From Octopus vulgaris (lineage: Eukaryota): DNA of 64,000 bases. The stretch covers positions 66,340,001-66,404,000 of the forward strand of contig OX597816.1 of assembly GCA_951406725.2 (NCBI GenBank), read 5' to 3'. Below the pieces are notes generated by a model. The model saw only the letters and a list, made by a program, of their open reading frames with translations, made no database searches and was not told the DNA's origin. This document shows, in pieces, positions 13,201-56,451 of this stretch (its first letter is position 1; the number at the start of each line of letters is the position of its first letter). The position numbers were made by a program, and so were the translations under genes.

Positions 13201-16200
13201 GAAATTTATATTTATTCTAATTTACTTAAAACGAGAATATAATTTACTGAAAAAATTTCAATTCTGTAACATTTTAATTTTAATTCCAAGAAAATTTTTC
13301 ATTTAATTTTGATTTCAATTCCAAGAAAATTTTAATCACACACTAAATATTCATATTTTCAATCCACAGGTTTTGTCAGATGTTTGAATGAATCACCTCA
13401 AAATAAGAAAAAAAAAAGTGTTTTGTTATCTGAGTATTAAAAAATTTAATTTTGATCTGGATAATTATATATACAGAGAAGGAATGTTTCACAAATAGTG
13501 GTAAAAGAAAATAAACTACTTGGATAATTAGAGATAGAAAAAAATATTTCAAGGATAAATATGCAGATAGATTATATATTTCTTTGTTTTATGTCCTGAT
13601 TAAATTTTGAAGGATTTCATTAGATAATTGTCATACATTGAATATGATTGTATATAAACATGCACACGTATATGTATCTGTGTAAGTAGACACACAACAA
13701 AATTTTGTGGAAAGACATAACTATAGGTTTCCCAAGTAACATAATGAGGTATAAAGAATATCCCAAATATTAGTAGTAAAATATTAGTGTAAATACATGT
13801 ATTTAAAAATAGGAAAATTAGAAAATTGATAATTAAAGTGAAGTTACTTACTATTTCTGTAGCAAAATGTTGCTGGATAATTGACAGTTTATACTGAGAC
13901 TGGTTATCAATACAGTACCGAGGAGCAAAAGTGACTATGTTGGTATCACAGTACATACCACAACCTTGTTTCACTTCTATACCAATGGTAAAAACTCTAA
14001 ATTTAAGAAGAATAAATGACCAAAATATGCAAAACAGATATATTGATTTCAGTTTAATAGCTAGCAACAAGACACTCTCCCTTCAAATAACCAAATGAAG
14101 GAGCCATTCAATGACCAAATTTTCATCAAATCATATCTTGACATCTCAAAACAGAGGACATATTAAACAAAGCCATCCTATATAAACTAGGCCTGATAAA
14201 AAAAAACCCCACAAAGATGAGATTTTCAATAAAAAATAGATTTCCTTTTAATCGGTAAATTAATTTAGTTAGATCTCAAAACTATTTCCCCTTTTCTTTT
14301 CTGGTTTGAGAGCCATTCCAAGTTGCTTTGGATACCTCATACCCTCTTACTAAATTTACTAACTTGATAGCATTGGTTCCAATGTTGAGTTTCACAGAGG
14401 CGATGACAAGTCACTGAAACAGTTGGCAATTTGCTGTGCCTAACAAGACACATCAAGTTCAGTGAAACCATAGTTGTGGCCAGTGCTGGTGTCATGTAAA
14501 AGGCACTCATGCCAGTGACACATTTAAGCCACCTGTGCCAGTGACACGTTAACCCATTAAGTCCCAGAGTACTTAAATTTCTGAATATTACTTTTTAATT
14601 TTTACAGATCATTGAAAATAGGTTAAAATGAAAAAAATAATTATTAAAACTCCTTTACTTCAAGTAGAAATGGAAATACTCGGTGTCCTATAAAATAGGA
14701 CACTGAGACAATGTGATATAGCTTATTTAATGTTCTCATTTAGTGTCCTATTATAGGACAGTGAGACTTAATGCCAGTGATACATTAAAAACACCTGGTA
14801 CACTCTGTGGAGTGGTTGGCATTAAAAGAAGTATCCACCCATGGAAACCAAGACAGACTGGAGCCTGGTGCAGCTCTCCAGCTTACCAGTTCTAATCAAA
14901 CCACCTAACTCATGCCAGGATGGAAAATGGATGACGATGAAAAGGTCTTAGAAATCCTACACAAACAGGGTTATCATGGCTGGATTGCCTTTGATCATCA
15001 TCATCATTTAGCGTCCGCTTTCCATGCTAGCATGGGTTGGACGGTTCGACTGGGTTCTGGGAAGCCAGAAGGCTGCGCCAGGCCCATTAAGTATTAAGTA
15101 AATGCTAACAAATAAAAAAGAGGCTCTTACCTATTTGGACTATTTGTTGCCTTAGAAGTAATGTGCACTTGGCGTGTACCAATGCCACTGTCTAATGTAA
15201 AACGAGGACACCTGAAATTAAAATTTATTATCATTTATCACAAAACTACTATCATAGCATAGCTGTGTGGCTATGAATAAATATGTATACAGAAATCATA
15301 CACAATATGCTTAATAAAGATATATTTTGTCACACTGTGAAAATATAGCCTATGAACAAACCAAAAGAGCTTCAGTAGCTAAGTGATAAGAATATGCTAC
15401 AAGTTTTAGATATTCTTCTAAATCCAGCAATTGAAACAGTTAGTAAGCGATCCCTGATGAGGGATTAATATATACAAAACTAGTCAGACACTCATCTCTT
15501 TTAGCTACCAAAGTCCTTATGGTTTGTACAACAACATTAAGTTTAATATATTGGATATAATTTCCACACACATACATGCATGTGTGTGTTTATATTAGTA
15601 TGTGTTTCAAAATTCAATATTTGCATATTGCTGAATAAACCATTTTCATAATGAAAATTACTATAAAGTGGGAATGTGTGGCATAGAAGTCTTATATTAA
15701 AATATATACAAGAAGCTTCTGGGTTAAAATAGCAATACTATATAATGATTAAATTATTTTTTTCCTCTATCATCATCATCATCGTTTAGCGTCCGCTTTC
15801 CATGCTAGCATGGGTTAGACGGGTCAACTGGGGTCTGTGAAGCTGGAAGGCTTCGTCAGGCCCAGTCAGATCTGGCAGTGTTTCTACGGCTGGATGCCCT
15901 TCCTAATGCCAACCACTCCGAGAGTGTAGTGGGTGTTTTTACGTGCCACCTGCACAGGTGCCAGACAGAGCTGGCGAACGGCCACAAACGGATGGTGCTT
16001 TTACGTGTCACCGGCACGGGGCCAGGCGATGCTGGCAACGGACACAAACGGATGGTGCTTTTACGTGCCACCGACACGGGGCCAGACAGAGCTGGCAAAC
16101 GGCCACGAACGGACGGTGCTTTTACGTGTCACCGGCACGGGGGCCAGCCGAGGCTGGCAACGGACACGAACGGATGGTGCTTTTACGTGCCACCAACACG

Positions 16201-19200
16201 GGGCCAGACAGAGAGCTGGCAAATGGCCACGAACGGATGGTGCTTTTACGTGCCACCGACACGGGGCCAGACAGAGCTGGCAAACGGCCACGAACGGACG
16301 GTGCTTTTACGTGTCACTGGCACGGGGCCAGGCGAGGCTGGCAACGAACACGAACGGATGGTGCTTTACGTGCCACCGACACGGGGGCCAGGCAGAGCTG
16401 GCAAACGGTCACGAGCGAATGGTGCTTTTACGTATCACCGGCACGGGTGCCAGACGAGGCTGACAGCGGACACGAACGGATGGGTCACTTAACCCCTGCT
16501 TTCTGATATATGATTTGATTTTGATTGTTCTCACTGGTCTTGCCGGGTCTTCTCACACACAGCATACTTCCATAGGTCTCGGTCTCTGGTCATTTCCTTG
16601 GTGAGACCTAGAGTTCGAAGGTCGTGCTTCACCACCTCGACCCAGGTTTTCCTGGGTCTACCTCTTCCACAGGTCCCCTCAACTGCCAGGGTGTGGCACT
16701 TTTTCACACACCTATCTTCATCCATTCTCACCACATGACCATACCAGCGCAATCGTCTCTCTTGCACACAACATCTGATTCCTCTTAGGTCCAACTTTTC
16801 TCTCAAGGTACTTACACTCTGTCGACTATGAACACTGACATTACACATCCAACGGAGCATACTAGCTTCATTTCTCGCGAGCTTACGCATGTCCTCAGCA
16901 GTCACGGCCCATGTTTCACTGCCATGTAGCATGGCTGTTCGTACACATGCATCATACAGTCTGCCTTTTACTCTGAGCGAGAGGCCTTTAGTCACCAACA
17001 GAGGTAAGAGCTCCCTAAACTTTGCCCAGGCTATTCTTACTCTAGCCGTTACACTTTCAGCACACCCACCCCCACTACTGACTTGGTCACCAAGATAACG
17101 GAAGCTATCAACTACTTCTAGTTTTTCCCCTGGAAAGTGACGGAAGTTGTTTTCTGCAGATTTTCAGAGGTTAATGCTCCCGAGCATCTGCCACATACAA
17201 AAACCATCTTCCTAGTTAGCCTTCCTATGACATTGCTGCACCTCTTATGTGTCCATAGCTTACACTTGGTGCATCTTATAGAGTTTCTACCTACACATTT
17301 TCTACAGATCTATAAATTTATGAAATGGAGTAGTGGTTCTTAATATTTCTTAGAGACAGAATTTGGAAAAAGATAGAAAAATAATAACTTGTGTTTTTGA
17401 AAAATTCTGTTAAAAAAAATTTGGTTCTGCACAGAAATTTCAAATGATTCAATATGCAATGTGACGTAACATTTTTGGTAGAACTAAGGCAACAAATCAG
17501 TAGAGTCATTAGCATGCTGGGTAAAATGCTTAGCAGTATTTTGGCCGTCTTTACATTTTGAGTTAAAGTTCTTCCAAGGTGGACTTTGCCTTTCATCCTT
17601 TTGGGATTGATAAAATAAGCACCAGTTGAGCGCTGGGATCAATGAGATTGACTTACCCCTCCCCTGAACTTGCTGGCCTCATGCCAAAACTTGAAACCAA
17701 TATTTCTGGTAGAACTGTTCCTTTATGAAAAGTAACATTATAATCAAGTGATATACAAGAATTTTCTTACCACTGAAGAAGTACACTCTCTGCTGCTACA
17801 GTTTGTCTCCCAGCTCTCATAGAACATCTGAGAAAGAAAGAAAATTATGTGATATACAAAGAGACACATACATGTTCGCACGTATGACAGTGAACATGAG
17901 AGAGTGTATGTATGTTTGCTAAAAAGAATAGCCAAATTTCACAAGGGATTAATTCCAACAGAAAGTTTAAGAATCAAGAAAATTTAAGTCTCTTTAAAAA
18001 GAAGCATTATTCATTTAGATTGCAATTCTGAAATAGTGAGGTTTATAAACAACTAGATTACCTATGACCTGTTGGGTCACCAATAGTTCAAGATAGCCGA
18101 AAATAGCACGTATCTCTGGAACCCATGGTCCAATTTACATGAAACTTGTCTTATTCCATTTGTATTCCCATTTCAAGGGCACTTTACTTTCAGAGTACTT
18201 TCCCATTATGTGCCAGTTTGGCTGTATTAAATTACAGACACACACACAAGCAAGCACGCAAACAAAACTATCCAGGTGTTCACAGTAAAGGGCAATAACT
18301 CCAGGTTTCACTGCTTAAATTTGTGGAACCCCCCCCACTGCATCTCGGGAATCCATCGTCCGATTTACACGAAACTTGTTTTATTCTGTTTGTATTCATA
18401 TTTCAGGGGTACCTTACTTTCAGAGTATTTTCCCATTATGCACTAGTTTGACTGTATTAAATGAGAGACAAGCATGCAAGCAAACAATCACAGACTTTTA
18501 GTACTATATAGATAAATAATTTTGACTCTGGTATTCCTAATCAGCTTCTGTAGCTATATAAATGTAGATATCAACATTTCTGATGGTAACCTAGTGTCAT
18601 ACAGACAAAAATGAGAGAGCAATCTTTTTTCACAAATTAAGCTTATGGATAGAGAATCTTTCAAGTAACAACTAATAATAATAAACTGTCATCATCGTTT
18701 AACGTCCGTTGCCTGTGCTAGCATGGGTTGGCCGGTTCGACCAGGGTCTGGGAAGCCAGGAGGCTGCACCAGGCTCCTGTCTGATCTGACAGTGTTTCTG
18801 GATGCCCTTCCTAACGCCAACCACTCCGTGAGTGTAGTGGGTGCTTTTCATGTGTCACCGGCACAGGTGCCGGGGGGGTTGGCAGCGGCCACGATCAGTT
18901 GGTGCTTTTTACGTGCCACCAATAACACCATTACAAAGCAAATTATCTTCTGGCATCTAATAGTTTTCTTTACACAAAAGGTACATTGGCTTTCTTTTGA
19001 GTTAGTAACTCTTAGTTACTTTTAGCTCAGTCTAGAGAACCGAGTTTCATCTTCAAAGTCTAAGAGTGAAACAGATATTGAAAGTGAAGCAGCAAATGAG
19101 AAAGATGCTTACAACAGGTTGTTGATAGACTGGGGAATAAAGAATGGAGAAGTTAAAAATAAAGTGTGTCTGTGCTTTTGTGTATGCACAAGTGTAACAT

Positions 19201-22200
19201 GAAAAGACATTTGAGTGTATGTCACCACAGACAGAAAGATGTGACCTCTGTGTAGTTACTTGAACTGCTTAAAATAGCATGCCCTACTGTTTTAAGCAAG
19301 TAAAGGAAATAATGGAGTTCTGCATATTAGAAACACAAGATGATCACAGCTGGAATGCCGAAGATCAATAATTAAATACCAAAAAATTCATTCAGAAAAA
19401 AGAATACAATACATACCTGGTTGGACACTCTTTGTCAGTAAAACTGAAAAGTAAAGGTGTGACACTTTTTGCTCTTTCGTGGTCTTCTGATTGACCTGCA
19501 GCTTCTAGTCTGGTGCCATCTTGTTTAAAAATTAATGGGATGCCGGATTTGTTGACAAGCCAATAGGGAGCTGAGATTTGGAGCTACCAATAAAAAACAA
19601 AATATGATAACTATTATTGTTTTACAAGCAATTGATAACATTCCAGTGAACTGAGATGGAATTTGGTCTCAGTTTTTGAGTCAAGTTACTTCTTTGCTTT
19701 CAATCATCATCATCATTTAACGTCCGTTTTCCATGCTAGCATGGATTGGACGGTTCGACTGGGGTCTGGGAAGCCAGAAGGCTGCACCAGGCTCCAGTCT
19801 GATCTGGCAGTGTTACCACAGCTGGATGCCCTTTCTAACGCCAACCACTCTGGTGTTAGGAAGAGCATCCAGCTGTAGAAACACTGCCAGATCAGACTGG
19901 AGCCTAGTGCAGCCTTCTGGCTTCCCAGCTTTGGGAAAGCACAAAGATCAAAACATTTCATTCCTATTTCATAAAATATAGTGTAGGGATTTCAGCCAGG
20001 TCAAACCATTACTAATGTTTTACAAAAGAGCAAATTTTTAGAGTTTGTTTGAAGTCATGAGATTAGAGATAACAAATTGGACGTATTTATAGACGATAAA
20101 TCTATCATTCAGAAATAAATATGAGATTATGAGAGGAGCCTGATGTTGCTAAATGTTATGTAAAAATGACCAGTGTGTACAAACACTGCTTTCAACAAGA
20201 AATACAGAGTGACCAATTGCCAAAGCATACGCATAACTCCTACTTGTATAATCTATCTCCTCTTTTATGATGAAAATTTATTCTGATATTGACTAAAACA
20301 CAAGCTAAAATACAAAATATATATGAATAAATGAAATGAAATAAAAAGAAGAGCCATTATATCACTTAATAAACATGTAATTAAACAAATCTTCATTAAG
20401 AGTTCTAAAAGTAAATCAAAACACATACATAATATAAAGATACGTGTATGTAAAAGAAAGGTATTGTCAAATGAATCAATCTCAGTATACCATTGGTAGT
20501 TATTTATCATTTATTAAATCCAGAGGGATTAATTTATAGAATAAAGGAGCATTTATTAACTATGGCATACATACATGAGTGTGTGTGTGCTGTATATGTT
20601 CTGTTGCCTAGATACTACAATGGTTGTAAATGAGCATCATCGTCAAATAAGTGAGGTTGTTTGTTTGCAGTCTTCTGTGAAAAGATGGCTAGCTATGGGG
20701 AAATAATATCTTGCTTGGAAATAGGTAAGGGTTGGTGACAAGAAGGGCATTCAGCCATTGAAAATCTGCCTCAGCAAATTTCGTCTGACCCATGCAAGCA
20801 TGGAAAAGGGGGTGTTAAATGATAAGAAGTGACTCAGCAAAATATTCCTTTTACTTCTCTACAACGATAATATGCTCCAACAGTGTTTGCGATGCCTTGC
20901 CTCATGCTGAATGACAAATTTCACGATAGGGTTTCCTTTTGCAGTCACTTACAGATCTTTGTGACAGAAGTATGCTGACAGAACAAGCTAATACTAAAAT
21001 GAATGATGACTGAAAAATATAAAGAACTAGCTGAATTACCCGGTAATACCCGGAAAAACAGGGATTATTTCCCATTCCCATTACACTGTTTCATGTCCTG
21101 TTCAGTTTCCATTTTAGTTCTGCTCCCATTCCTATCCCCAGTCCTATGCCAATATATAAATTTTAGAATCAGTTAGGTGTAATTGAGCCATTAAATATTT
21201 TATTAACCTTCATGGTAACAGTTTATTGCTAAAAACAGGTATTACAAACAATTAATGATTAGTGGGTGAATATGGAATGTCCCTGTATTATTTTAACAAA
21301 CAAAAATGCATCTGAGTAAAATAAATGAGTTGACCAGTAATACTGAGAAAGCGGGAGTTATCCCCAATTCCCATTACACTGTTCCATGTCCTATCCAGTC
21401 TCCTGTTCAGTTTCTGTCTCTCTACCCAATCTGTCGTTTATGGTAATAGTTTATTGCTAAAAATAGGTATTACAAACTATTAGTTCAATTAGTGGGTGAA
21501 TAAGGAATGTCCCTATATTATTTAAACAAACAAATATGCATCTGAGTAAAATATATTAGAGAAAATAGGGAGATTTACAAATACATTGACAGTTTGCATA
21601 TTGTAGCTGGCTTTCTCACATTGTAGCTGATTTGTAAACATGCTACAGCAACCCCCCCCCCCCAAGGGGACTCATTGTAGATTTTTATTGAAATCCAGTT
21701 TGTCTATAATTCAACTGGATGTTAGAAACAAATAAATAACAAAATTGGATTTAACATGGAAAATTATTTCAATATACCAAATTTGAAAATATTGATGTAA
21801 TTTTAGAATCTCACAATATGTGACAGCAACAGGGAAGACCCTACAAAAGTGGAGAGACAGACAGTTATAGGACATCACACACACGCAAATTTACAAACAT
21901 GCACACAGGTAATCATGAGTTTAAAATGGTGTATAGTAGACATATGTATGTCTGTGAGTGTTTCTTTGTGATGGACAGCACAAAAGCCACCTATCCCCTC
22001 TCTCCTTAAAGCTGTATTCCTCACACTCACCTTTCTCTGGGTATGTGTGTATGTTGTATCAATATATTTATGAAAGTATGCATGCAGCATCGTGTGTATA
22101 CGACAGCTTATTAACGTTAACATCCCATTGCCACCACTGTTCTCGCCTTCACTGATATAAGTCACCCTCTCTCTGCTACTACCTTTCCCTCCGACTAATA

Positions 22201-31200: not shown

Positions 31201-34200
31201 TCAACCTGCTTCCACTCTGTAGCTTTGATATAAGCATCAGTGAAATTTTCCAACAATCCACGCTTTGTGTCAACTCCAGAGACACTTGAAAAATAGAAGT
31301 TTGAATGGAAAGCATAAGTAATGATTAATTTTACATAGAATGACATTTAAAAAAAAAAAAAGGATAACATTAGGAAGGGCATCCAGCTGAAGAAACCATG
31401 CCAAGGCTGACATGGAGCATTATGATCCAGTCAAACCATCCAATCCAAAACTGCATAGAAAAACAAATGGTAAGTAATGATAACCACTTGAGGCAAACAA
31501 TAAATTTTGCTTGAAGAAAATGTTTAATTTTGCTTTTTTTTTTCTCTTCATAAAATGTCAAGGAAAGATGGGCAGTTTCCTTGATCTTTGCAAGCCTTCC
31601 TATTCAATTAAATATCAGATGGAAAAACATGGATAGGTATGAAATTACAGATGTAGTTCTCGGAAGGAAAATTAAATAAAGTTTTTACTGTGGACCACAG
31701 AAGAAGAGATAAAGAACAGGTGACAAGATGAGAAAAGACAGGCCTTGGTGGAGAGGGTATATGATTAGGTACTTCAGAAAAGGATAAATCATTGTAGCAG
31801 TAATAGAAGAGACAAAGAGAAAAAAACAGCATGTATACAAGTGAGTGGTTGAAGCACGTTGACAGCTGAAGTATGTTGTCAATCATTCATATGATGTTCT
31901 TTTGGATTTGGTTGAGGATGTTTGTGCAATCACAGCATCATCTCATAAATATGAGTAGAATATGTTGCAGAAATTATGAGCCCACTGAGAATTAATCAAT
32001 CCAAATTTCTGCTTCAGGATTCTGAATTTATAACCTGCTTGCATCAACAGTAGAACCAGTAATTCTACAGGGAATTAGCCTTTTACCTTCATAAAATACA
32101 AAATAAAAATGGAACATTGGTGCTGCCCTTGACTTCAGTAAAGCATTTTTAGCATAAATGTGTGATTTTCTGATATTCAATTACAAACGTACATAAAAAG
32201 CATTTGTGCTGGTGTCATGTTAAAAGCATGCAGTTGGCATTAGGAAGGGCATCCAGCTGCAGAAACCTTTTCAAAACAGACAATCGGAGCCTGGAGTAGC
32301 TCTCTGGCTTATCAAGCTGCCCAGCCTATGCCAGCATGGAAAATGAATGTTAAATGATGATACAAGATTATTCTTGCTAATACAGAATGTGAGTTGAGGA
32401 AGGTTCAGCTACAATTTATGATAAATTGACCAACCAGGTAGTGGCTGCCTTTTGTTGTTTGTAATATGCCAAAGCAACTTTAATGAATATGTTTCATTTT
32501 ATGCATGACTTTACTGGATCTGATCTTAATCCTATTGTGAATGAGAACAAAAACAGTTAACAAACCCTTTTTTTTGCAAAATAGAATTCATAAAAACATT
32601 CCTTCAACAAATGCAAACGTATTGTTTGATTAATTTGATTGAAAAATATGAATTACATTTATTTACAGCTCTAAATAAACATGGTCAAATATATATCAAG
32701 TACAATTATATGAGTGGAAATGTATGGCTTAATGGTGAGGGTGTTAGCATCATGATCATAAGATTGTGGTTTCGATTCCTGGACCAGGCAACGCATTGTG
32801 TTCTTCCTTTCACATTGCTCCAGTCCACTCAGCTGGCAAAAATGAGCAACGCTGCAGTGGACTGGTGTCCCATCCAGCTGGGGAACACATACGCCATAGA
32901 AACCGGGAAACTGGGCCCATGAGCCTGGCTAGGCTTTAAAAGGGTGCATTTATTTATTATTTTACAATTATAGGAATAAATGTGGCATGTGGAACGAAAT
33001 TTTCTATTGCAACAGGTTTGAATTTGGCAAAAGACATTTAAGTACAACATATAGGTATTGGTATACAGTCAACTCACCAGGCAGGGGTGGTGGTTACAGT
33101 CAAAAAATGGAATGGCAATCCTGTGTGATTTCGTATGACAAAAGGCACAAATGGGATACGTTTTTGTAGACCAAATTTCTTGGCGACTGTTTGAGATAAC
33201 TTTGTTGATGAATCCTTGCTGGTGTTTCTGAAATGCGACCAAATGCATTCCATTGAAATTCAATCATTGGGAAAGAAGATGTATGTATGTATGTATGTAT
33301 GTATGTGTGTGTGTGTGTCTTGACAATGAATATTCTAGATGTTTGATCACCTAAACTATTTACACATTCAATCAGCATGTGGGTGAGAATTCCATAATGT
33401 GTGTGCTCTTAATATACACCTATATGCACATTCTCTCTCTCTCTTTCAATATATATATCAGGGACGTGCTGCCTAGGTAGGCAAAGTAGGCAGTGCTTAC
33501 TTTAAATAAAATAGATCGATAGCAACATTTTACTTTTATGGCAAAATATGCACCTAATTCAATAAAATTATGAAGTTTACTCTGATTACAATGCTTAAAA
33601 TGCAAAATATATGTTTTTGTTGTTGATTAGGTAGGCATAATTTGCCCCTGCCTTTCAATCTCAGTATTTAATTTACACATAGTACTGCCGTAGCACACAT
33701 GCTGCATACATTCCTACAACGTTTTCTTTATGTGCTGTAAAGGCAGATGTAAATTTACCTTCAACTCAGTCATGTGGCTGTGTTTTACTACATAAGTGCC
33801 ACCAACTGCCTTGCCTGAGTAATTACTGATGCCATGTGCCTGATATATATATATATATATATATTGATAAAACGATAAGATAACAAAAGAAAGAAAGAGA
33901 CCTCAATATTATGTAAATAGAGGAAATTTATCTATACAATATGTTACATTACTCGGTAGTCAAGATAAAACTCTGAGTTTCAGATGCCGAAGTGGAAATC
34001 CACAACACCATCTCTTCGGTTATCTGGCTATTTGAAAACGTTATGAAAAAATACCGTTAAAAATGAAGGGAAATTACTCTGTTATAACTCTGCTTTGTCC
34101 TGCGTACTTATACATCGCTCGCATTTTTCGTCATAAAAATTGTATAAAAAAATACATAAAAATATATAAAAATATATAAAATCTTCTTGGGACATAACAC

Positions 34201-35721
34201 AGAAAGCATGTTCTATCCGTTTTCTTTAGGGGACCAAAAACGTAACAGAAATTTAGTCACATGTGGGCATGATCCGAAAAGCTCTGTCCTTGTATTTAGA
34301 CATGTGGTAGGGTCTAAGCTGCTTTTCCAGATAAGCCATCTCTCCATGTCGCATAAACCGCACCTTCCGCTGCCGTTAGTATAGGGCTTACATCTGGCCA
34401 AAATCTTCCATTGTATGTTATAATCGACACCTTTATCTCTTAAAGACCAAATATGATTGGATAATTGTGTCGCTTTTCTTTTGTTCCAGTGCCTAAAGCT
34501 CAAAGTGTGGTTATTGAACCTGGCCTTGAAATTACCCTCTGTCAGGCCCACGTATTTCTTCGTCGAAACGGTGTCTTTAGTGGTTATAGAGTTTACGGTA
34601 GCTTCATATATGATGGTCTTGGACATGCAAGCTCCATTTAGCGGGCACAATTCTTTATTCCTGCATGAACAGCTGTTTTCTTCTTGTATTTTTTGTATGT
34701 TATGATTGATTATGTTTTTAAAATTGGTAGTTGAACTAAAACTAATTTTTAAATTGTGTCTATTGAAGAGTTTCCTATAAGCATGGTTAACTGGAAAATG
34801 TCTATCTATCAGTGCTAGGAAATATTTACCTATATTGAAGGCCACCTCACCCGAGGTGGCCTTCAATATAGGTAAATATAGGAAACTCTTCAATAGACAC
34901 AATTTAAAAATTAGTTTTAGTTCAACTACCAATTTTAAAAACATAATCAATCATAACATACAAAAAACACAAGAAGAAAACAGCTGTTCATGCAGGAATA
35001 AAGAATTGTGCCCGCTAAATGGAGCTTGCATGTCCAAGACCATCATATATGAAGCTACCGTAAACTCTATAACCACTAAAGACACCGTTTCGACGAAGAA
35101 ATACGTGGGCCTGACAGAGGGTAATTTCAAGGCCAGGTTCAATAACCACACTTTGAGCTTTAGGCACTGGAACAAAAGAAAAGCGACACAATTATCCAAT
35201 CATATTTGGTCTTTAAGAGATAAAGGTGTCGATTATAACATACAATGGAAGATTTTGGCCAGATGTAAGCCCAATACTAACGGCAGCGGAAGGTGCGGTT
35301 TATGCGACATGGAGAGATGGCTTATCTGGAAAAGCAGCTTAGACCCTACCACATGTCTAAATACAAGGACAGAGCTTTTCGGATCATGCCCACATGTGAC
35401 TAAATTTCTGTTACGTTTTTGGTCCCCTAAAGAAAACGGATAGAACATGCTTTCTGTGTTATGTCCCAAGAAGATTTTATATATTTTTATATATTTTTAT
35501 GTATTTTTTTATACAATTTTTATGACGAAAAATGCGAGCGATGTATAAGTACGCAGGCAAAGCAGAGTTATAACAGAGTAATTTCCCTTCATTTTTAACG
35601 GTATTTTTTCATAACATTTTCAAATAGCCAGATAACCGAAGAGATGGTGTTGTGGATTTCCACTTCGGCATCTGAAACTCAGAGTTTTATCTTGACTACC
35701 GAGTAATGTAACATATTGTAT

Positions 35722-35756
<35 letters not shown>

Positions 35757-36019
35757 AGTTTTATTCGAACACATAAGACAGCTATTATGCTTACTCCCCA
35801 CAAAAACCACCATGTGGATTCTGTTGAGACCAGTAAGAAACAATTATGAACATTTTTTATTACACTTAACTTTTTAAAATATTTTTGATGAGGTTCGTTT
35901 TATCAAGAAGAACCGAAACATGTAAAATTTCTAAGAAAATTAAAATTTATCGTATATAGTGGCGTTTTCAAACTTCTTTTTTATAAATATATACCCACTT
36001 GTATACGACCTACACTTAT

Positions 36020-36058
<39 letters not shown>

Positions 36059-36065
36059 ATGTATG

Positions 36066-36099
<34 letters not shown>

Positions 36100-40760: not shown

Positions 40761-40808
<48 letters not shown>

Positions 40809-43800: not shown

Positions 43801-46800
43801 TCTTTCCCGTTTTTGTTCTTGTTTAACCCTTTTGTTACCAACCCGGCTGAAACCAGCTCTGGCTCTGTAGTACAAATGTCTTGTTTTCATAAGTTTGGAA
43901 TTAAAATTTTCCACCAAACCTTAGTCACAATCTATCTTTCTAACACTAGCTGAATGATAACTAAGTTATTTTACTAAATTCTTTGTTATATTTAAAGTAA
44001 TTGAAAGAAACACAGAGAATCTCAAAATAAATACAGTAACAAAAGGGTTAATAAAACACAACATAATGAAATGCATAATCTATGTTCACTATCTGATACC
44101 ATGTATAGCAATATGTACTGAAGCTGTGATTGCACTTACAAACCTTTACTTCATACAGGGTGGTTCCAATTCTTTCTTTTTATTCACTATGTCACTGACA
44201 AATAGTACAAATATATGTCAATATCCACCTAGATCCTCCCTCTGAAATAACTGTCCATAAAGATCCTCTCTTAAATCAATATATCTCAAATAATTATGGA
44301 GATGTACTTGCATAGCGAGTGACTTGATCTGAGATCGTGTGCTGGAACGAAAACAATTGCAGCGTGGAAGGTGTTTATAAGCCATTTAAGAAACACACAA
44401 AAATCGTTAGATTCACTTCAACATTTAAATTTAATTTGTCAAAATATTTTCGGCGCTTTGAGACCACAATGCAGCACAAAGTTTTGTCAGTGAACAGGTT
44501 GCGGTCTCAAAGCGCCGAAAATATTTTGACAAATTAAATTTAACTGATGAAGTGAATCCAATGGTTTTTGTGTGTTTCTTAAATGGCTTATAAACAACTT
44601 CCATGCTGCAATTGTTCTCTAATAATTATCCATAACATATGGGAATTGTGTGTAAAAATGGTTTGTAAATTCAATGCCAGTTTTGGCACCTGAAGAAAAG
44701 ATATCAAATCATTAAAAATGGGATTTATTGAAAAGCAGAAAAAATTAAATTAGCAGCCCAGAAAGTAATTTTTCCATCTATCATTAAAGAAAACTAACAA
44801 ATCAATGGCATCTTAAAAAAAAATAATAATAATAATAGCACACACACACACACACACAGGATTGAAGTGTTCAAACATTTACAGAGAAATGTGTAGATCC
44901 TAAAATATGTATATTTTAGTAAGTATAAATACCATTAAATTTATACCCCAATTCTGCAGCAGAATCCATATGGATAATAATGGCTTTGATTTTAGGGACA
45001 TCAACCTCAGTACACGATTGGTACTTAATTTTATTGACCCCAAAGGGATGAAATGGTAAATCTGACCTCAGCAGAATTTGAACTTAGAACATAATGAATT
45101 GGAAGAAATGTTGCTACCAGCTCACCACCTAATTTATATGGATAATTTACATGGTTAATAATCCCCAATAGATATTTCGGTGAAATCAAGTTAAGGATTT
45201 AATAATATAATTACCAAAATATAGCACATGTACACACTGTGAGTATAGGCAAGAATGTTTGAACATTTACATACTAGAGTTCCTATCTTCAGTTTGATGC
45301 TCTCCAAATCTCTGACCATTGTAAACAAGCCTTCCAGGTATATAGGAATAAGCAGAGTAATGTGCCTTTTCTAGGGTCACCTAAGAATGGTCACTATAAA
45401 TTTGAATTTGTAGTGGATCTTGCAAGCATGAAGTGGATTCGATCCACCATAGCCAAATTTAAATTAACACTGCAACAGAACTTTTTCCATGGTGGAACAA
45501 TGGTTTTTCTTTGACAGCAGTTTTGAATTTTCCAGATGCCTTTAGCTAGGCCGAAATAATGTCTTCACCACTTGACCCTTTTAACCTCTTCTACTTCATC
45601 AAAAGCTAGAATAGAGATAACAAGACTACCAACTAAATCTGTTGTTCTCAATGATATATCTATCCTTCTGGATAGTTATAAAAGCAAGAACACTCCAAGC
45701 AAAAATCAGTCTGTGACGACTCAACGAGTTACTCACTTCAGTGACAACGAAGTCTGACTGACCAACTAGAACCTTGGTCAGAGGGAGAAATGAAGTTTAC
45801 TGTCAGCAACTGTGAGACAACGTCCCACACCCTACAACTCTCACTAGCTCAAAATTCTGTTCTGTTACGTCATCATTCTATCTCTCTCTGTAATTACTAC
45901 TAAACAACGAAGAGGACATAAACACAAACTTTACTTCGCATGCTTTTTGATTTATCATAACCTGCCCGTCGAGAAAAGGTATTGTAACATAACGGTAAAT
46001 AGATATTTCCTTAAAACTTCATGCATTGTTCATCTTTCACATTCTACAACATGCAATTATAACAACAAATTTTTATCGTTACAAATTTAATTGATCATAA
46101 ACATAATATAAACTGAGGAACTAAGATGGCACATCCAATATAAAAGACTTCACAATAGGATATCAAACTATAAAAATCAGATTTATATTGAATCACACAG
46201 GCATATTAAAAGCACAGACCTTTTCCTGTTAATAAATTAAAACTTTTGTCTTGAAAGTAACATCTAATACTAATATTGATATTTACCTTCAGAATAGCTG
46301 CTTCCGTGTCCCATGTAGACATGTCAGCAACAACCACAAACTGCGTATTTCTGACATTGACTTTCAGCTCAAATGGCACCTCAGTCTGGAAAAGTGAATC
46401 AACAGGTACGGTGAACAGGAGAAGGGCAAGTGATACTGAATATTTAAGCAGAGCTAGTTAAATCAACATAAACAGACATACTATGAGTTGAGTCAAAATC
46501 AACAGATATAGAAGGTGTAATTACATGAAAAAGGGGGAGGAGAGAGAGAGAGAGAGAGAGAGATAGTGTCAGTGTTAAGAGAAAACAAGAACTGCTATAA
46601 ATGCTCATTAATCCAACAAAACTAAAAAGTATTATATATACTCATTTATCTCAAATTACAATCATATGTTAATAATAATAAGCATTCTACATATTACATA
46701 TTTAAACAATAATTAATACTAAATACATACTAGCTTTTTGATGGGTTTTATTTCTGCTTCAAGCCTTGCTCCATTTTCTTGTAGAGTTTAATTTTGTCAT

Positions 46801-47191
46801 CTTTCAGTCATTCTTACTCTTCTTACCTCCACTCACTTCCCTTCAGGATTCTCACTCACACCATTATTTTTCTTCCTCCCACTATATGTATTTCTTACAT
46901 TTTCCTACTTTCTATTAAAAATCTGCCCCCACCTCTTCTCTTCATTTCCTGATGCTTTTTTCTACACTCACAAAAACACCAATATCAATCTCTTTGTCTC
47001 TCATTTGTTTACTTTATAACTATTTCATCACACTGACTCTATAATTACCCCTTCTTTTTGTAGAGTTCAATGTTTCTTCTTTCCACCTGTTCCCTCTTTT
47101 TGTGCTATTCTTTCTTCTCTCTTTCCTATCCCTCTCTATATTTTTAACTGCCAAATGTTGGCTGTTATTGCATGATGCATATATTTATACA

Positions 47192-47226
<35 letters not shown>

Positions 47227-49728
47227 TTCTCTTAACATTGTGTGATAGTTGTAAATGAGTGTCACACAGGTAGTGTCATCCATTTTCAGTATTCTGTGAA
47301 AATATGTCTGGCCAAGGGGAAATATTACCTTGCTTGGAAACAAGTGAAAGTTGGTGACAAATTCTATCCAATCATGCGAAAGGGGAAATTAATACAATAA
47401 AAAATACACACACACACACACACACATACACACACACACATGCATACTTACTTGTTCAACAACATGACATCGTCTAGTCACTATTCCTTGAGATCTGTTG
47501 AGAGGACTGCGTGGCCTCAAAATAGGTGTGGAACTTTCAGAGGGGTTTCTGATCTTCACAGTTTCAAATTTGACCTCTGGCTTTTTATCCATATCTGATT
47601 TAAAAAACAAAAAAAAGCCATCAGTTTAATATTTAGATATCCAAGTGATAATTATAAACTATTTCCACAGTAACTTTTAGCCTAAACAATTCTTGCTACA
47701 TATTAAATCACACCTAGGTACATCAACAAAGTACAAGAATGCAACTACAAAATCATTCTGATAACACTGCCCTGTCCAATCAATACTAACAAGCTAAAAA
47801 AATAATTTACTTTTCCCTGAGCCCTAGGACTCTCATAAGGCTGTTTACCTGAATTCTGTGGTATATAAGAGACCAAGACCACAACATTCCCTCTAAATGC
47901 GAACCCAAGTTCCATTGCAGAGTTCAAAACCAGCACTTTTGGGGAGAGGAAATAAGTTAATAATATGCAACCAAGTACTTGACTTGTATTTTATGTTATT
48001 GATCCGGAAAGGATGAAAGGCAAAGATGACATCAGTAGAATTTGAACTCAGAAATGTGTCGGAACAATTATTGTGATTAATAATAAATTCTTGTATGTTC
48101 CATCTTCTGTCTTTCATTTGTTATATATATATATATATATAGGGAGAGTTTACGAAAAAAACAAAAGACGAAGACAGGTGGTGTACAAAACAAACAGATG
48201 TATTAGTATAACGCTCAGGAATACAAAAAGCCTTTTACGTTTCGAGCCTACGCTCTTCTACAAAAAGGGACACAGAAAAAACAAGGAGAGAAAAAAAATG
48301 CGTGTAGTGGCTAACGATCTATCATGGCGTCATATATATATATATATATATATATTCACACACACACACACACACACACATACACACACACACACACACA
48401 AAGATATTTGCAACATTAATTACCTCACAAGCTGCCAGATACAAGGGTTGTTAATTATCAGAAAAACTTACAGAAGAATAATAGCTGTCATGCTGTGCCC
48501 AAGTTCCCCTTGTTCATGTCTGCATTAGACCACCACTAAAACTTCTAGACATACAAGTAGTCTGGAAGAAACACAGCATGTCAAAACTACCTCACTGCAC
48601 CCTACATGATAGACCACTGCATATTAGCTTGTGTGGGTCAGTCTTCAGTAAAGTTTTTGTTTCATGGGTTGCTATCTATGTGTCCTAGATCTACTTCAGC
48701 AAGGTTGAGCAAGAGCTACACAAATAATACAGCTTCTGAAAACATGGACCAAGGAGCACAATTAAGCAAGAGGTTAGCAGTTCATATTCTGGCCCTAGTC
48801 CTGTATTATGTTGTGTCTTGTTTGTTGTCAAGCTGGCTGAATCCACCTAGGTATAATGTGGTAGGGTTCAGTCACAAATAGCAGCAACAGTCCAATGTTG
48901 ATTTCAATTATGCTCGGAGAGAAAAAATTACATTTTCCAAGAAATGAAATGGGTAGGAACCAGCAACACTGTTATAAAAATTAAAATGCTTTGGAAGCCA
49001 AAAAACACAGAAATTTGTATCTCAGCACAGTGCTGAGTGTGGAATTTCTACTAACTCCCTTACAAAATTCACACAGATGAACATTGTACAGTAAACTAAA
49101 CATTGCCTTTTGATCAAAGTCTAATACTTACCTAAAAATGGGTCCTCAATATCAGTGGTGAGAAAGTTATTGACGGCTAGCAACCAGTCAAAGATGCACA
49201 TCAGCCGCATGTTATTCAACAAGACAGTAAACAGCTTCACTTGATTGGTGAATTGAAAATATAGCTCCATTTGCAACTTGCTACAGGTATCTACTTGTTT
49301 TGATGGTTGCAAGATGTTACTAAACACATTTGGAGCTTTCCCAGGTGGAAGATCTGTATTTTGAAATGAATGATTAAAATAATTTATTAAAATAATAAAA
49401 ATTTTATTTTTTAACTCATCTATTTGGTAATATACTGGGTACAAAAATGCATATGAAATTAAAGAAATGAAAAAGTGTGAAAGGAAAGAAAAAAAACAGT
49501 ACCTTTATATCTAGTGTCAACTGCTCGTATTTCATGAGAAACCAGATCAACATCTTTGGTTCCATTGGAGCGTGTTTTCACCAGAAGATTAGAATGAATG
49601 AAATCAAATCTTGCCAAAGAATCTTGGGATGTGTTTTGCCAGTCAAATAATAATTCTACAGTGATGTTTCTTAAGTCAATTTCCATGAGCATATTTGTCC
49701 ACACTGAACCAGATGGAGGAGCCTAGTA

Positions 49729-49761
<33 letters not shown>

Positions 49762-50902
49762 GGTTGTATATAAAGGTCATATATACAACATATCAAAGGT
49801 GATAGAGGCCTTATACAGCTAGAAAGCTATTACAAAATAACCACCATAGGACTACAGAAATACCTACTTTAGAAGCAAGGAAAACTAATACAAATAGCCA
49901 CAAAATATGAACAAAACAAAAAAAAACTGTTGTCTGTCTTTAAGGAAGCTGACAAAAACAAAAAAGCAGTCATAGTACCAAACAACTATGAAGAAAAAGA
50001 AGAAACAACTAAAGCTGTAAAACAACTGAAATCCAAACTAAAACTGGAACAGTAATGTATCATGATAAAATGATGGCAAGAAAAGCCCCTACATGGCAAA
50101 TATTGGGTTAAGCTAAGCAGAAAAGAAATAGACAAAGCAAAACCCTAACAATGGCTGAGAAGCTCAGGACTCAAAGCAAAAGCTGAAGGATTTTTAAGTG
50201 CAGCACAAGATCAAAGCAAATCACCAAAAACATGTAATGACAAGAAATACAAGTAACTGCAGAATATGTGGTGATGGAGAAGAAACAATAAATATTATTG
50301 CCTTTGGCTGCCCCGTCCTGATGAAGAAAGAATATATTCACAAACATGACAGAGTTGGGACCTATAGACACTGGAAGCTATGCCAACACTATGGAATAAT
50401 AACAGAAAAAAGATGGTATAGGCACACCTGACAAAAGGTCACAGAAAATGAGAAAGCAACCATATTCTGAGATATGCAGACAGAGAAATTAAGGCCAATA
50501 AGGCCGGATTTAGTTGTCAGAGATCACCAAGAAAAAATGCATTCACTGTATGAATACCAACAGGTGACATTTCTCTAAAAGTAATAAAAAAACTTTCAAA
50601 ATACAAAGATCTGCAAATAGAGGTAACTTGAATGTGAAGCCTAAAAACAGAAACAGTAAACAGAAAATAGTAGGTGCATTAGGTATGATAAAAAAAAACA
50701 TTCAGACAAATACATAACAAAAACACCAGGACTTACAAGTATATATAACATAGAGAAAATAGCACCACTACACACATCCTACATAAAACACTTTCAATAC
50801 AGTGAAAATAAGAGCACCACAACAAACCACAGCACATGCCCAAGGCAAACAGAGCTGCACTCGGTAGTACAGAGAAAGCATGTGATAAAAATAAGACTAC
50901 TA

Positions 50903-50938
<36 letters not shown>

Positions 50939-51457
50939 GTTACGGGTGCTTGGTACAAACATACACCAGAAAAGGTAATGGACAAAAAGGGAAAGCAAAA
51001 ATCCTCTGGGACTTTGATTTCCAGACAAACAAGGTGTTAGAGCACCACAGGCCGGATATAGTAACCTTTAGGAGGGACAAACAAGAGTGCCTAATAATTG
51101 ACGTGGCAGTGCCAGGAGATCAACATACCATCATGAAAGAGAAAAGGTTGATAAATACGGAGACCTGAAAATTGAGATTGCTAAGATGTGGCAGCTACGA
51201 GAGTCAAACATAAAGCTATCCCTATTATCATCGAAGCATTGGGTTCAATAACACCTAATCTGAAAAAACAAAAACTTTAGAAATACCCTACAATCTAGAA
51301 TTATTGTAAAAGTCGGCATTACTTGGAACTGCATGCACATTGCATGAAAAAACGGTCTGTTTGAGGTCCTTGTTGAGACTTGACAAACAGTACAAACCCC
51401 CAGTAGGTACAATATCTTCAATCAACAAACCCATTATATTGTATACTGTGCGACATC

Positions 51458-51515
<58 letters not shown>

Positions 51516-54500
51516 GCTTCAAATTTTAACACAAGTCAACAGTTTTTGAGGGGATGGTTAAGTACCAGTGTTCAACTGGCACTTATTGGTTCCAAAAGCA
51601 TGAAAGGTTTATTTGAACACAGAAAATTTTTAAAAAAACTGTAAGAACTGCAGCTAAATGTATTGTTTGGTGCTGATTCTACCAGCTCATTGCCATAATA
51701 GTATTTTCTAATTTTAGAATAAAGCCAGCAGTGTTGAGGGGAGGGGAAGTGAATTCCATCAACCCTAGCACTTGAAAGGTACTTTTTTTTATCCATCCTG
51801 AAAGGATAAAAAGGTAAAGATGACCTTCGTGGGATTTGAACTTAGAAAATTAAGAGCCAAAAGAAATGCTAAGCATTTTGCTCCAACACAAACAATTCTA
51901 ATAATAATAAATATCATTATCATCATTAATGGCGTTAGGAAGGGCATCCAGCCATAGAAACCATGCCAAATCAGACTGAAATTTGGTGCAGCTCTCCAGT
52001 TTAACAGTTCCAGTCAAACCCATACCAGCATGGAAAGCAGACGCTAAATGATGATGACTATCATTGTTGTTGTTATTTCAACTACATAAGGCGGCGAGCT
52101 GGCAGAAACGTTAGCACACCGGGCGAAATACATAGCAGTATTTCGTCTGCCGTTACATTCTGAGTTCAAATTCCACCAAGGTCGACTTTGCCTTTCATCC
52201 TTTCGGGGTCGATAAATAAAGTACCAGTTACACACTGGGGTCGATGTAATCAACTTAATGCCTTTGTCTATCCTTGTTTGTCCCCTCAATGTTTATCCCC
52301 CTGTGGGCAATAAAGAAATAGGTATTTCATCTGCTGTTCAAATTCTGAGTTCTGAGTTCAAATTCCGCCAAGGTCGACTTTGCCTTTCATCCTTTCGGGG
52401 TCGATAAAGTAAGTACCAGTTACGTACTGGGGTCGATGTAATTGACTTAATTTGTCCTTGTTTGTCCCTTCAATGTTTAGCCCCTTGTGGGCAATAAAGA
52501 AATAAGAATTGTTACTGTGCTGGACAAACTGCTTAGTGGCATTTTCTGACTTTACATTCTGAGTTCAAATGCTGCTTGGAGTCAACTTTGCCTTTCATCC
52601 TTTCAGGGTTGATAAAATAAGTACCAGTGAGTACTGGGGTTGATGTAATCAACTAGCTTCTGCTCCACAAATTTCAGGCATTGTGCCTATAGTAGAAAGG
52701 ATTGTTATTTCTACTATAGACACAAAGGCCTGAAATTTTGGGATAGTGGCACTACTTGATTACACTGACCCCAGTACCTAATACATGTTTTTCCATGCTG
52801 GCACAGGTTAAATAAGTGTTTTCCAGCAGAGCATCTCACCACTTTTGGTAGTCTAGTGTCTAGTTCCATGGAGATCAATATAGCAAGTGAAAATTAAATA
52901 AAACTAGATCTCATGTAAATTTGAATTGTTTTTATATTCTTATTATCAATAATTGCTGGGAAACGATAAAAAATATAACGATTCCCTTTTTAAATTACTT
53001 CCACAGAATATGGATGCCATGTAAAAAGTACTGATGTGGGTGCTGGGGCCACGTAAAAAGCACCCAGTATACACTGTAGAGTGGTTGGCATTGGGAAGGG
53101 CATCCAGCCAAAACAGATGTTTAATATTAATGATGATGAAACTAGACATACCTTATTTTGTGGCTCTTTCAAATGTGTCATAAATGGTCGCTGGAAGTCT
53201 GGCAATGTTTCACCAATATTATGAGCAAGAATACCCCGCAATAGTTTGAACTGTTTCAGAGTAATTAAAGCATGAATGGAAGACAGCTTGCCAGTCATAT
53301 GAATGTTTGGAGCAGAATGGCTAAGTCCCCGATCAAGATTCCGTTCCACTTGCAGATGTAATGCACATTTTTCTTTGAAGATTTTACCAGTCTGCAAATA
53401 AAGAATTTCAAATGTGTTATACTGAATATTAAGTTGTCACACAAATTTCAGAAATGAATATACAATTTTAAAATATAATCTCTACATAATGTGATAGGAA
53501 CCTTCTCTCCTATGACAGCATCTGAGGATGATGTAGCTAATACTTTTAAAAAGTTAAGTTATTATTTAATCAAACTTTAAATGACTTGATATAAATTTTC
53601 AGATAAATACGATAAAACTCAGTAAAATTTATCCTAAAACTCAACATCATACCACTGTCCCAAATACTATTATGCTGATTTTTATCTCCTAATAATTCAA
53701 ATATACATTGCACAGTAAAATTAAATTTTCCAGGAAAATAATTTTACATAAATTTTTCCACTAAAATAGTTTACAGATTATTAATCTTGTGTTTAGAGAA
53801 TATATTCACAATATTTAGAGTATTTTTCAATATTTTATTCCAGACAGATTAGAACTAGTACTCAAGTGGTTAGTCTAGATATGTATCTGGGAATAAGACA
53901 CATAATGACAATTGAAGATCAAACTGAATGGAATATGGTGGTGAAATATTTACAATATTAGCTCTCCTTATAGGTGACAAACCCGATTCAGGTATCTTTG
54001 AATTAACCCTCTTGATACCAATCTACCGAGACAGCCTCAGGTCCTACGAAACAAGCTTCTTGTTTTTAAGTGATATAAATTAATTTATATACCAAACATC
54101 AGCTTAATAGTGACCAAGTTATTTTACTGAATTATTATTTAAAAAATTAATTGAGACAAAGGTAGTGTACTTAAATAAAAATATAATATTAAAAGTTTTA
54201 AATCAAATTTTCAAACTGTCAGTTTGTTTTTAACAATTAACTTTCTTAGGCTGAAAATAATTTTCAAATATTTTTTATACCATAAGAAGATAAAATACAG
54301 AAAGTGTTTTGTCCAGAAAAATACTAAAGTTGCAACTGAAGTTGTCATCAATGAATAACATGAATAACAGTTTTTGGAGCTGAAATCATTATGAAATAAG
54401 AGTGGACCCTGGCCAGTATTTATTTCTGACATGGGCAAATTAGATATAAAAAATGAATGCTGTTTTTTGTTTTTTTATGAGTTATAACCAACATTATTAG

Positions 54501-56386
54501 GCTATAACATAGTTTAATAATTTAATATTAATTTTCTCCCGTTAAAGTGGACAACTGAAGTAAAAACGTTTAGATGACTGTATGGCAAAATGAAATATGT
54601 AAAAACTAACTTACATCTCTTTCAATTGAATAAATCGGTCCATCAGATGTATCAACTTTAACCAACTCAGCTGAATACAAATCCATATCAGTCAATGTTA
54701 CTGACATTACATCTAGCAGACAGATGTGCTTCATGGGGTCACACTGAGCATAAGCCATGCTCTGCTGAACAGACAACGTGAAAGGGTTTATAGTCTTTTT
54801 TTCCTGGGCAAGCAATGGTGCTGACAGTTTCTTACAGAATTTACTACTCTGTGGAGAGGAGAGTTTGTCAGAGCTGCTATCAGACAACACGCGGCTGTCC
54901 AGTACTGAAAAGTTGCATGGAGACAAGCACTCCAATGTTGACAGTACAACAGTCTCTTCTGCAGAAACATTCTCAGTGGGGTCAAAAATATCAGAAGATT
55001 TTGATTCACTCATGGATGACGCTTCAAGTTCCCCATCTCTGATGTCATGTTCAAGACTACCATAAATGCTTTGGTTCATCAGATCAACATCAATTTTAGG
55101 AATAACTAGTGCAGGCTTTTCATTTTCTTTTGGCAAACTCTGATGGAAAACACTTTGAGTCATTGGTGTGTAACTACTCACAGAATTGGAGGATAGTTTG
55201 TCATCAGAGTGAGTAGAGTTGGCTGAATTGTACTGTCTACCTTTGATGGTTCCAATGGAACCATCTAAAAGGAACTGGTTGGTAACACTAAGCCGTCCAA
55301 GTTCAGCAACGAGTAGGCCTGTTGTTTTATAACTGTAAGGAAGCAAAATCACAGGACTGTCTGCTTCAATGTTCATCTTAATGCGAGCATTACGTATCAT
55401 ACTTGCTGAGATCTGATAAAAAGAGACAAAGGAAAAAATAAGATTAGAGAAAAATATGCACAAAAGTCAATAGTTCTTACATGCAAACATCTTCATGTAT
55501 ACTTGATTTTGTTTGTTTTTTACTTCTATGTAAATCCTTGCTATGTAATAATTTTCAAAAGCAAATTTATTTTAATTATAAAATCAGATTAATAATAACT
55601 GTTTTTGTTTTATTTATTATAGCAATTATAATATAATAGTAGTAATTATTTTAATTACAATAGCAAGTTAACCACTATAGTATCTAGTTTAAAATAATAA
55701 ATTGAGACTAAGTGTCAGAATGTCAATGAAAGACTTAGCAACATTTGCATACATGTCTGGGAAATGCAAAACAATGGAGTAAACAAATAATAAATGGTCT
55801 CGTGGATCAGGTTAACCTCTTCGGCAATTGTCAAAGGGATGTATGAGAAATCTTCCCTATGTGCACATACTATTTTTATCTGATGTGCATAGTCCTTTTT
55901 AAAAACACATATGCATACACACACACACACATATATATATAAAGTATATCAACACTCCTATGCAAATGATATTACTTTTCATCCCTCTTCAACTAAAATG
56001 GTCTCTCAAATAACTGTTTTAGTTTACAGTTCAGATACTTACTAATCAGACCTTGCATAAATATTTGCATTTATGTACATTTTGGTATATTCTACTGACG
56101 AAAGTAAAGTAATTTTTATATTACTAAACCACAAATTGTTTGATCTAGAATTAGAATCATTTGACATCTATTTCTAGTGTGTAGGTGCTGTTTCTCAGTA
56201 TCCTTAATTATATCTGTATAATGATATATATATATATATTTCTCTCCTTTTTTTTTCTGTGTCCCTTTCTGTAGAAGAGCATAGGCTCGAAACGTAAAAG
56301 GCTTTTTCTATTCCTGAGCATTATGCTAATACATCTGTTTGCTTTGTACACCACCTGTCTTCGTCTTTTGTTTTTTCGGAAACTTT

Positions 56387-56451
<65 letters not shown>

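Follow-up and report, generated by a model that had tools for sequence, protein, structure and literature searches.

Penelope-like elements (PLEs) carry minimal type I hammerhead ribozymes in their pseudo-long terminal repeats (pseudo-LTRs), with a layout of CUGANGA-H, a G..C stem II, GAAA, a palindrome and UH. In the survey of Cervera and de la Peña in 2014 these motifs occur mostly as single truncated copies, sometimes as opposite-strand pairs and with several families per genome, and they show low activity as dimers (PMC4209133). Here we describe four motif families that share this position, layout, copy form and multiplicity within 64,000 nucleotides of the Octopus vulgaris genome (assembly GCA_951406725.2, contig OX597816.1, positions 66,340,001 to 66,404,000; hereafter the window). 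We consider it very probable that each of the four intact motifs is a minimal type I hammerhead in the pseudo-LTR of a distinct coding PLE family, and that the short copies are dead-end products.

A sequence-only reading of the window had fitted five motifs, labelled here A (15452), B (33963/35630), C (35881), D (44483) and E (48231/56264), to a single hammerhead layout, and had proposed to check them with a relaxed descriptor and with Rfam. The fit stands for B to E and fails for A, which is decayed. A relaxed type I descriptor that allows one core deviation, composed post hoc with the motifs already seen, matches the window five times: at 35630-35692 (+), 33963-34025 (−), 35881-35928 (+), 44483-44533 (+) and 56264-56301 (+). 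By comparison, when the window is resampled 60 times with an order-3 Markov model, 58 of the resamples contain no match, and the mean is 0.05. The copy at 48231-48268 (−) is recognisable by eye as a member of family E, and fails the descriptor on two core deviations (U3·G8 plus U6). The features that belong to families B to E are these:

33859..34848 (−): left arm of a head-to-head inverted, 5′-truncated family B insertion, with the end of the GIY-YIG frame, the 3′ untranslated region (UTR), the hammerhead and an optional tail (33859-33925) present on this arm only; 98.8% identity to the full-length copy L156
33963..34025 (−): family B hammerhead found by the descriptor, core CCGAAGA (U4C), stem III ACUC-a-GAGU
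34877..35729 (+): family B right arm, with the GIY-YIG frame to 35443, the 3′ UTR and the hammerhead, ending in (TA)n
35630..35692 (+): family B hammerhead, with stem I AGAUAA/UUAUCU, core CCGAAGA at 35636-35642, a stem II whose 3′ side has an unpaired U, GAAA and ACUCAGAGU; cut predicted after H17, which is U35686
35753..36022 (+): family C solo 3′ end or pseudo-LTR between two (TA)n runs, 93% to a copy (L227) bearing an open reading frame (ORF)
35881..35928 (+): family C hammerhead, core UUGAUGA in this copy, stem III ACAUGU, H17 A35924
44296..44467 (−): inverted left arm of family D, tail included, ending inside stem II and lacking the core
44469..44619 (+): family D solo pseudo-LTR; its start, some 20 nt upstream of the core, is at the preferred 5′ end of the family
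44483..44533 (+): family D hammerhead, with stem I UUUGUCA/UGACAAA, core GUGAACA at 44490-44496, an extra G, a stem II damaged in this copy (GTCGC/GCGAC in the family), GAAA, AAUAUU and H17 U44526
48141..48332 (−): family E solo pseudo-LTR in (TA)n, hammerhead at 48231-48268 with core UUGUAGA
56240..56389 (+): family E 5′-truncated pseudo-LTR in (TA)n
56264-56301 (+): family E hammerhead, with core CUGUAGA (A6U), an extra A, GAGC/GCUC, GAAA, ACGU and H17 A56296

The cores and stem III palindromes of these motifs are as the earlier reading gave them. All four families have stems I and II, GAAA, a palindromic stem III, UH and the G10.1-C11.1 pair, and G5, A9, G12-A14, U16.1 and a non-G H17 are retained in each; in 78 aligned copies H17 is A or U, never G. 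Families C, D and E combine the G10.1-C11.1 pair with the known extra nucleotide after A9, and in B the unpaired base lies on the opposite side of stem II. As had been claimed, the families are otherwise unrelated, no pair being more similar in DNA than E 0.005. Flanking (TA)n runs, which the earlier reading had noted for three of the five families, are present in the window for B, C and E and are common at D ends elsewhere in the genome.

In 60 evenly spaced 10-kb stretches of the genome (600 kb) the descriptor finds 18 matches, against 0-1 across eight resamples. Seven of the 18 lie in one retrozyme-type array and 11 are dispersed. A non-canonical core is present in 8 of the 11, in agreement with the earlier suggestion of Penelope-type minimal hammerheads whose family-specific cores a strict CUGAnGA search would miss; with such a share, CUGANGA descriptors, and Rfam, would undercount the motifs in genomes of this kind. 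The Rfam scan of the window returned no hammerhead at E up to 10, which is uninformative because a control array of canonical retrozyme hammerheads (L228) was missed as well. Also present in the sample are a further PLE-type family with a UUGAAAA (U3-A8) core (four matches, at L247, L256, L278 and L285) and a family E relative having CCGACGA as well as CUGACGA cores (L269 and L287). That the motifs are chance fits within AT-rich, palindrome-rich repeats is extremely improbable. The descriptor was loosened after the data had been seen, the stems of C and D are short and AT-rich, and motif A fails; against this stand the excess over resamples in both the window and the 600 kb, the placement of every motif where PLE hammerheads are known to occur, and the post-A9 nucleotide and G10.1-C11.1 pair common to C, D and E.

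Each of families B to E includes copies in which the motif lies ~0.2-1 kb behind a reverse transcriptase (RT) frame, a GIY-YIG frame or both. The organisation is that of endonuclease-bearing (EN+) PLEs: a single ORF with RT and, at the C terminus, a GIY-YIG domain in B, D and E (broken frames only in C), partial tandems in B and E, inverted copies in B, C and D, and an optional tail in B and D. In the window copies of B and D, just one of the two arms has the tail.

Family B, which had been counted among the mini-elements at 33963/35630, is instead represented in the window by an 850-bp inverted repeat bearing a GIY-YIG frame. In a protein search 150 copies were scored, of which 149, besides the window’s own, stand at 99%. 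All five fetched copies have a 717-codon frame with RWK, DKT, CxCx5C, CxxC and CxH motifs, and two of the five are direct motif-ORF-motif tandems with a motif spacing of 2,578-2,590 bp (~2.6 kb). Judged by its protein motifs, B is a Hydra-clade PLE, having RWK, DKT, the CxCx5C linker, CxxC plus CxH, a length below 3 kb and a (TA)n target. The full-length B protein has no Pfam match, and the fragment in the window gives a weak match to GIY-YIG. There are 3,524 exact family matches to CCGAnGA; in the first 100, C3-C4 is present throughout and position 7 is A in 94 and U in six. Older relatives (L164 and L213) have U4, some with a C before GAAA, and C4 thus looks derived in the young B subfamily. 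The 5′ ends of 30 copies form a continuum from 19 to >1,600 nt upstream of the core, and there are two fixed 3′ ends, with and without the tail. In runs X8, X13 and X16-X20, labelled as six other organisms, 0.76-0.86 of the sampled words of the B 3′ region are present, from which B would be nearly identical across those six organisms.

The coding copies of family D (L288-L291) have RT plus GIY-YIG frames of 733-1,025 codons, with the GUGAACA motif ~1 kb past the stop; the frames of 839 and 1,025 codons contain YVDD and match Pfam GIY-YIG at 1.8e-5. The GUGAACA core, a G3-C8 swap, has 6,514 exact family matches, and four runs of other organisms over the motif, with thin core cover in three of the four, show no alternative core letter at a 15% share. 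Copies form head-to-head inverted pairs with two fixed 3′ ends 55 nt apart (with and without the tail), and a young haplotype is common to coding and solo copies. By its reduced CxxC linker and YIGETSR, D is Nematis-like on motifs alone.

In the coding copies of family E (L437, L443-L445) the frames span 751-1,047 codons, contain YIDD and YIGQT and match Pfam RVT_1 at 1.3e-7; one of these copies (L445) is a direct motif-ORF-motif tandem of 4,567 bp. The motif lies within 1.5 kb at 24 of 30 E ORF loci, with U6 in 23 of the 24 and U, C or A at position 7. The CUGUnGA core has 21,395 matches to the family pattern; in the first 100, U6 is present in 94, and a hand count of position 7 gives A 26, C 18, G 15 and U 41.

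In family C, three of 30 copies reach at least 1 kb upstream, into broken RT and GIY-YIG frames, seen in L226 and L227 together with a CxxxxCxxC linker of the Neptune type. The earlier reading gave UUGAUGA as the core at 35881, which holds for the window copy; its G8 is a minority variant (three of the first 100 of 546 matches), the family core being UUGAUAA with a U3-A8 pair (96 of the same 100). Inverted pairs are present and a direct tandem was not seen for C. An apparent clustering of C 5′ ends was dropped as confounded by the reference. The copy at 35753..36022 abuts the B insertion in one (TA)n tract (33859-36022), showing common targeting. Families C and E resemble Neptune by a Cx(2-5)CxxC linker and C-terminal GIY-YIG, again by motifs alone.

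Copies of D and E are mostly discrete units of 150-250 bp with a preferred 5′ end. Among 30 D copies picked by a downstream anchor, 29 could be mapped, 18 of them starting at −19 to −28 from the core and none further upstream; among 30 E copies picked likewise, 12 start at −72 to −83 and two near −104. The boundary reads TC-AGATG in D and TC-AGTC or TC-AGAC in E, and is initiator-like in both. Of the solo-type D copies that start at AGATG without long upstream sequence, 20 of 31 have a G before the first A (p 9e-8 vs 20%). The window shows the D boundary at 44468-44470, where an extra G without counterpart in the long copies is possibly a copied cap. A spliced 5′ exon was considered as the source of the D GAG|ATG junctions and set aside: by eye there is no matching donor in L289, and the base preceding the G varies. 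A copied cap, the candidate source, would account better than splicing for the extra G in D.

These observations suggest how the short copies might arise. An internal promoter with an initiator has been described in a PLE pseudo-LTR (PMC2377424), and the octopus elements may likewise start transcription from an internal promoter in the upstream pseudo-LTR, ~22 nt (D) or ~80 nt (E) ahead of the core. In the anole Poseidon element, RT starts in vitro at two internal sites, which define the tail, and cleavage is protein-assisted (PMC11167929). By analogy, the element protein would nick AT-rich DNA and begin reverse transcription within the RNA just beyond the hammerhead. Copying from there back to the RNA 5′ end would leave a solo pseudo-LTR of 150-250 bp, and copying from the downstream pseudo-LTR would yield an ORF-bearing, variably truncated copy. 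The palindromic stem III would close only between two RNA copies, so that, going by precedent, any cleavage is predicted to be slow, dimeric and probably protein-assisted.

The earlier reading saw in the short copies a network of non-autonomous, retrozyme-like elements mobilised by PLEs. Such a new network does not hold: every intact family continues upstream into an RT frame, a GIY-YIG frame or both, and the short copies carry the same motif haplotypes as the coding copies. Moreover, the 30 D and 30 E loci picked by anchor showed no direct short tandem (core pattern recognised in 25 and 15, respectively), and we take the short copies not to be retrozymes since no short tandem units were seen. 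Families B to E are not non-coding, nor do the 60 D and E loci or the B tandems (period ~2.6 kb) show head-to-tail hammerhead units of 150-450 bp. The real feature behind the supposed mini-elements, the discrete D and E units, is best read as solo pseudo-LTRs.

We nevertheless weighed the alternative that the short units amplify themselves, through RNA circles or SINE-like transcripts and with PLE proteins acting in trans, and judge it unlikely. The discrete 5′ and 3′ ends in D and E and the dominance of solo copies would suit it, PLE promoters are internal so that a solo copy could be transcribed (PMC2377424), true retrozyme-type arrays exist in this genome (a 359-bp tandem at L228), and retrozymes have been proposed to derive from pseudo-LTRs (10.64898/2026.07.22.740005). 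The ORF-bearing members with matching haplotypes in all four families and the 60 loci free of short tandems oppose it, as do the motifs themselves, which are of the minimal PLE type and not the canonical retrozyme type. In addition, the RNA needed for insertion of the anole element reaches past the RT start (PMC11167929), a part that solo copies would lack.

Several observations weigh against our account of coding PLEs with dead-end solo pseudo-LTRs. Judged from the pattern counts of D and E, there are ~ten- to fifty-fold or more as many solo as long copies (upstream pattern 514 matches against 6,514 for the core pattern in D, and 104 against 21,395 in E, the patterns being of unequal length), and some solo copies may therefore have re-amplified on their own. 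Four long D copies contain no direct motif-ORF-motif tandem, and no intact frame was found among the C copies examined. The D 5′ boundary also resembles a branch point with a splice acceptor, part of its G signal may be junction microhomology, and a cap-like G precedes the E boundary in only 1 of 14 copies. The hammerhead is not recovered when C and E are folded at minimum energy, and the B fold has A9 paired to the extra U. Finally, the earlier reading had proposed comparing core and stem conservation with the flanks; within families the motif stands at 0.94-0.98 and the flanks at 0.90-0.93, a difference that is only slight and says little on selection because the copies were picked by similarity.

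Whether the variant cores cleave is a separate matter. Families C (U3-A8) and D (G3-C8) have a Watson-Crick swap of the 3-8 pair, and E (U6) and young B (C4) depart from CUGANGA. Because variation falls at two free hammerhead positions, 7 and 17, the motif appears to be under constraint. In the literature, C3G/G8C partly restores activity in the laboratory, including in a PLE hammerhead (PMC8495972, PMC11167929), U3-A8 is a covariant already in print for Schistosoma (PMC4209133) and elsewhere (PMC3088659), and A6C is slow, with a rate of <0.1 per min (PMC3088659). We predict that C and D, which keep the 3-8 pair, probably cut weakly, and that E and B, the latter with C4 and a shifted bulge, are probably slower still. 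In folded dimers the palindromes pair between copies in B, C and A and not in D and E, which is not decisive.

A reading that agrees with ours on the identity of the elements and differs on function alone holds that the variant cores are dead or nearly so, the fold being kept for protein binding, RT positioning or RNA dimerising while the core letters drift. We regard this as a real possibility, although we do not favour it. In the anole element, insertion in vitro was unaffected by catalytic mutations and the cut site yielded no RNA ends (PMC11167929); the 5′ ends of D and E copies are not enriched at the predicted cut site. Family E is the most abundant here with U6, despite the slow cleavage published for A6C, and D includes ~213 copies with an unpaired G3·G8, ~11-fold over background. 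On the other side, where the 3-8 pair has changed, the fixed state is again a Watson-Crick pair (U-A in family C, G-C in family D), and catalysis depends on that pair (PMC8495972, PMC11167929); the core positions listed above as retained are also kept in all four families.

The G3·G8 copies were examined further. In one pattern frame, position 8 of D is C in 6,514 copies, G in ~213 and U or A in 164 (~72 to 28). Background change rates in 71 aligned copies are 2.0% for C>T, 0.74% for C>A and 0.28% for C>G, so that G8, at 3.3%, is the class in ~11-fold excess, whereas U8, A8 and changes at position 3 match the background. There are 190 variants at position 3, and C accounts for 10 of the first 100. 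For G8, the pattern gives 220 copies, the first 100 of which comprise 97 with G3, three with U3 and none with C3. A single older subfamily does not account for them, as they occur on several haplotype backgrounds and the state differs between partner copies in four of six distinct paired loci. The excess reflects either copied source elements with an unpaired core or a site misread in reverse transcription. Copied G3·G8 sources, if real, would argue against catalysis in cis being strictly required, or would be consistent with trans cleavage within a dimer.

More tentatively, and on balance doubtfully, the genome may hold what is, for the PLE hammerhead, a natural mutational scan, in which a recently mobile G3-C8 family and a U6 family all still cut as protein-assisted dimers. 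The G3·G8 copies would then be dead RNAs, free to spread because an intact dimer partner cuts them in trans. If so, cleavage would be selected in vivo although it is dispensable in vitro.

Motif A stands apart from the four families:

15454..15485 (+): motif A, decayed relic of a canonical-core hammerhead (CUGAUGA, AAAA, CUAGU, C)

It fails the descriptor because its GAAA reads AAAA at 15476-15479 (G12 lost) and stem I does not close. A DNA search found one distant relative, the exact pattern occurs in two places, and the gapped pattern CUGAUGA...GAAACUAGUC gathers 20 diverse motifs; a parent element was not found, and there is no PLE protein match within 1.5 kb. Separately, seven loci (L333, L334, L335, L336, L338, L340 and L343, at ~1440-1600) hold dispersed units of ~150 bp with TA-rich flanks and CTGACAG...CTGTCAG-like ends. 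With a canonical hammerhead whose stem II varies between copies, they are candidates for real non-autonomous hammerhead monomers. The array at L228:2745-4763 (G000:C1:20002745-20004763) comprises 5.6 tandem units of 359 bp that are 98% alike, each with a CUGACGA hammerhead, and two further units on the opposite strand; it looks like a true non-LTR retrozyme.

Other features of the window lie outside the hammerhead families. At 54609-55466 (−) an open frame has a weak match to VPS13 (Pfam VPS13_M 5e-6, below the cut-off; VPS13C 7e-5), and the window elements probably lie in introns of a minus-strand VPS13-like gene. Long interspersed element (LINE) pieces at 11319-13205 (−) and 16534-17163 (−) have an RT interrupted by a PHD-like finger. 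An abundant repeat resembling a short interspersed element (SINE) at 15932-16483 ends in (GAT)n and has an internal 61-bp tandem array; its copies include 7704-7926, 19697-19928 and 61191-61407, and one copy contains a 78-bp hairpin with scores to microRNA models that stay below their cut-off.

Compared with described systems, the closest counterparts are PLEs. The family C core is that of Schistosoma Sm3 (UUGAUAA), and family E resembles the Acropora Neptune motif (PMC4209133). Family B shares with the Hydra-clade PLEs of Craig et al. 2021 a length of <3 kb, a single ORF with RWK, DKT, CxCx5C, CxxC and CxH, the (TA)n target, tandem and inverted copies and the tail (PMC8557442). Those elements are reported there with canonical hammerheads, whereas young B has C4. 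The internal RT starts of Anolis Poseidon (Frangieh et al. 2024, PMC11167929) would account for the two 3′ ends and the tail, and its targets are AT-rich as well. Non-LTR retrozymes (Cervera and de la Peña 2020, PMC7229834; Li et al. 2026 preprint) share the type I hammerhead, a short repeat and the PLE link. They are, however, non-coding tandem repeats of 150-450 bp with canonical hammerheads and circular RNAs (PMC7229834), while the window families are coding and their short copies single or inverted.

The cores are where the octopus families part from these precedents. G3-C8 of D, U6 of E and C4 of B with its 3′-side stem II bulge are absent from the 56 motifs of Fig. S3 in PMC4209133, whose descriptor would miss them. 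Natural G3-C8 or U6 was not found in the literature covered, which included PMC3884650, PMC8495972 and PMC3846280 and excluded the Lünse et al. 2017 survey, Craig File S2 and Perreault Figs 5, S6 and S7. Within that scope no printed match was found for a family-wide G3-C8, for U6 or for C4 combined with a shifted bulge, U3-A8 being already known. Insertion in vitro was not blocked by catalytic mutations (PMC11167929), which leaves open why PLEs retain hammerheads, and long-frame families with G3-C8, U3-A8, U6 and C4 cores are natural substrates for asking whether catalysis or the fold alone is selected. The C3G/G8C change that was engineered in Poseidon (PMC11167929) is here the family state in >6,500 D copies, including those with long open frames.

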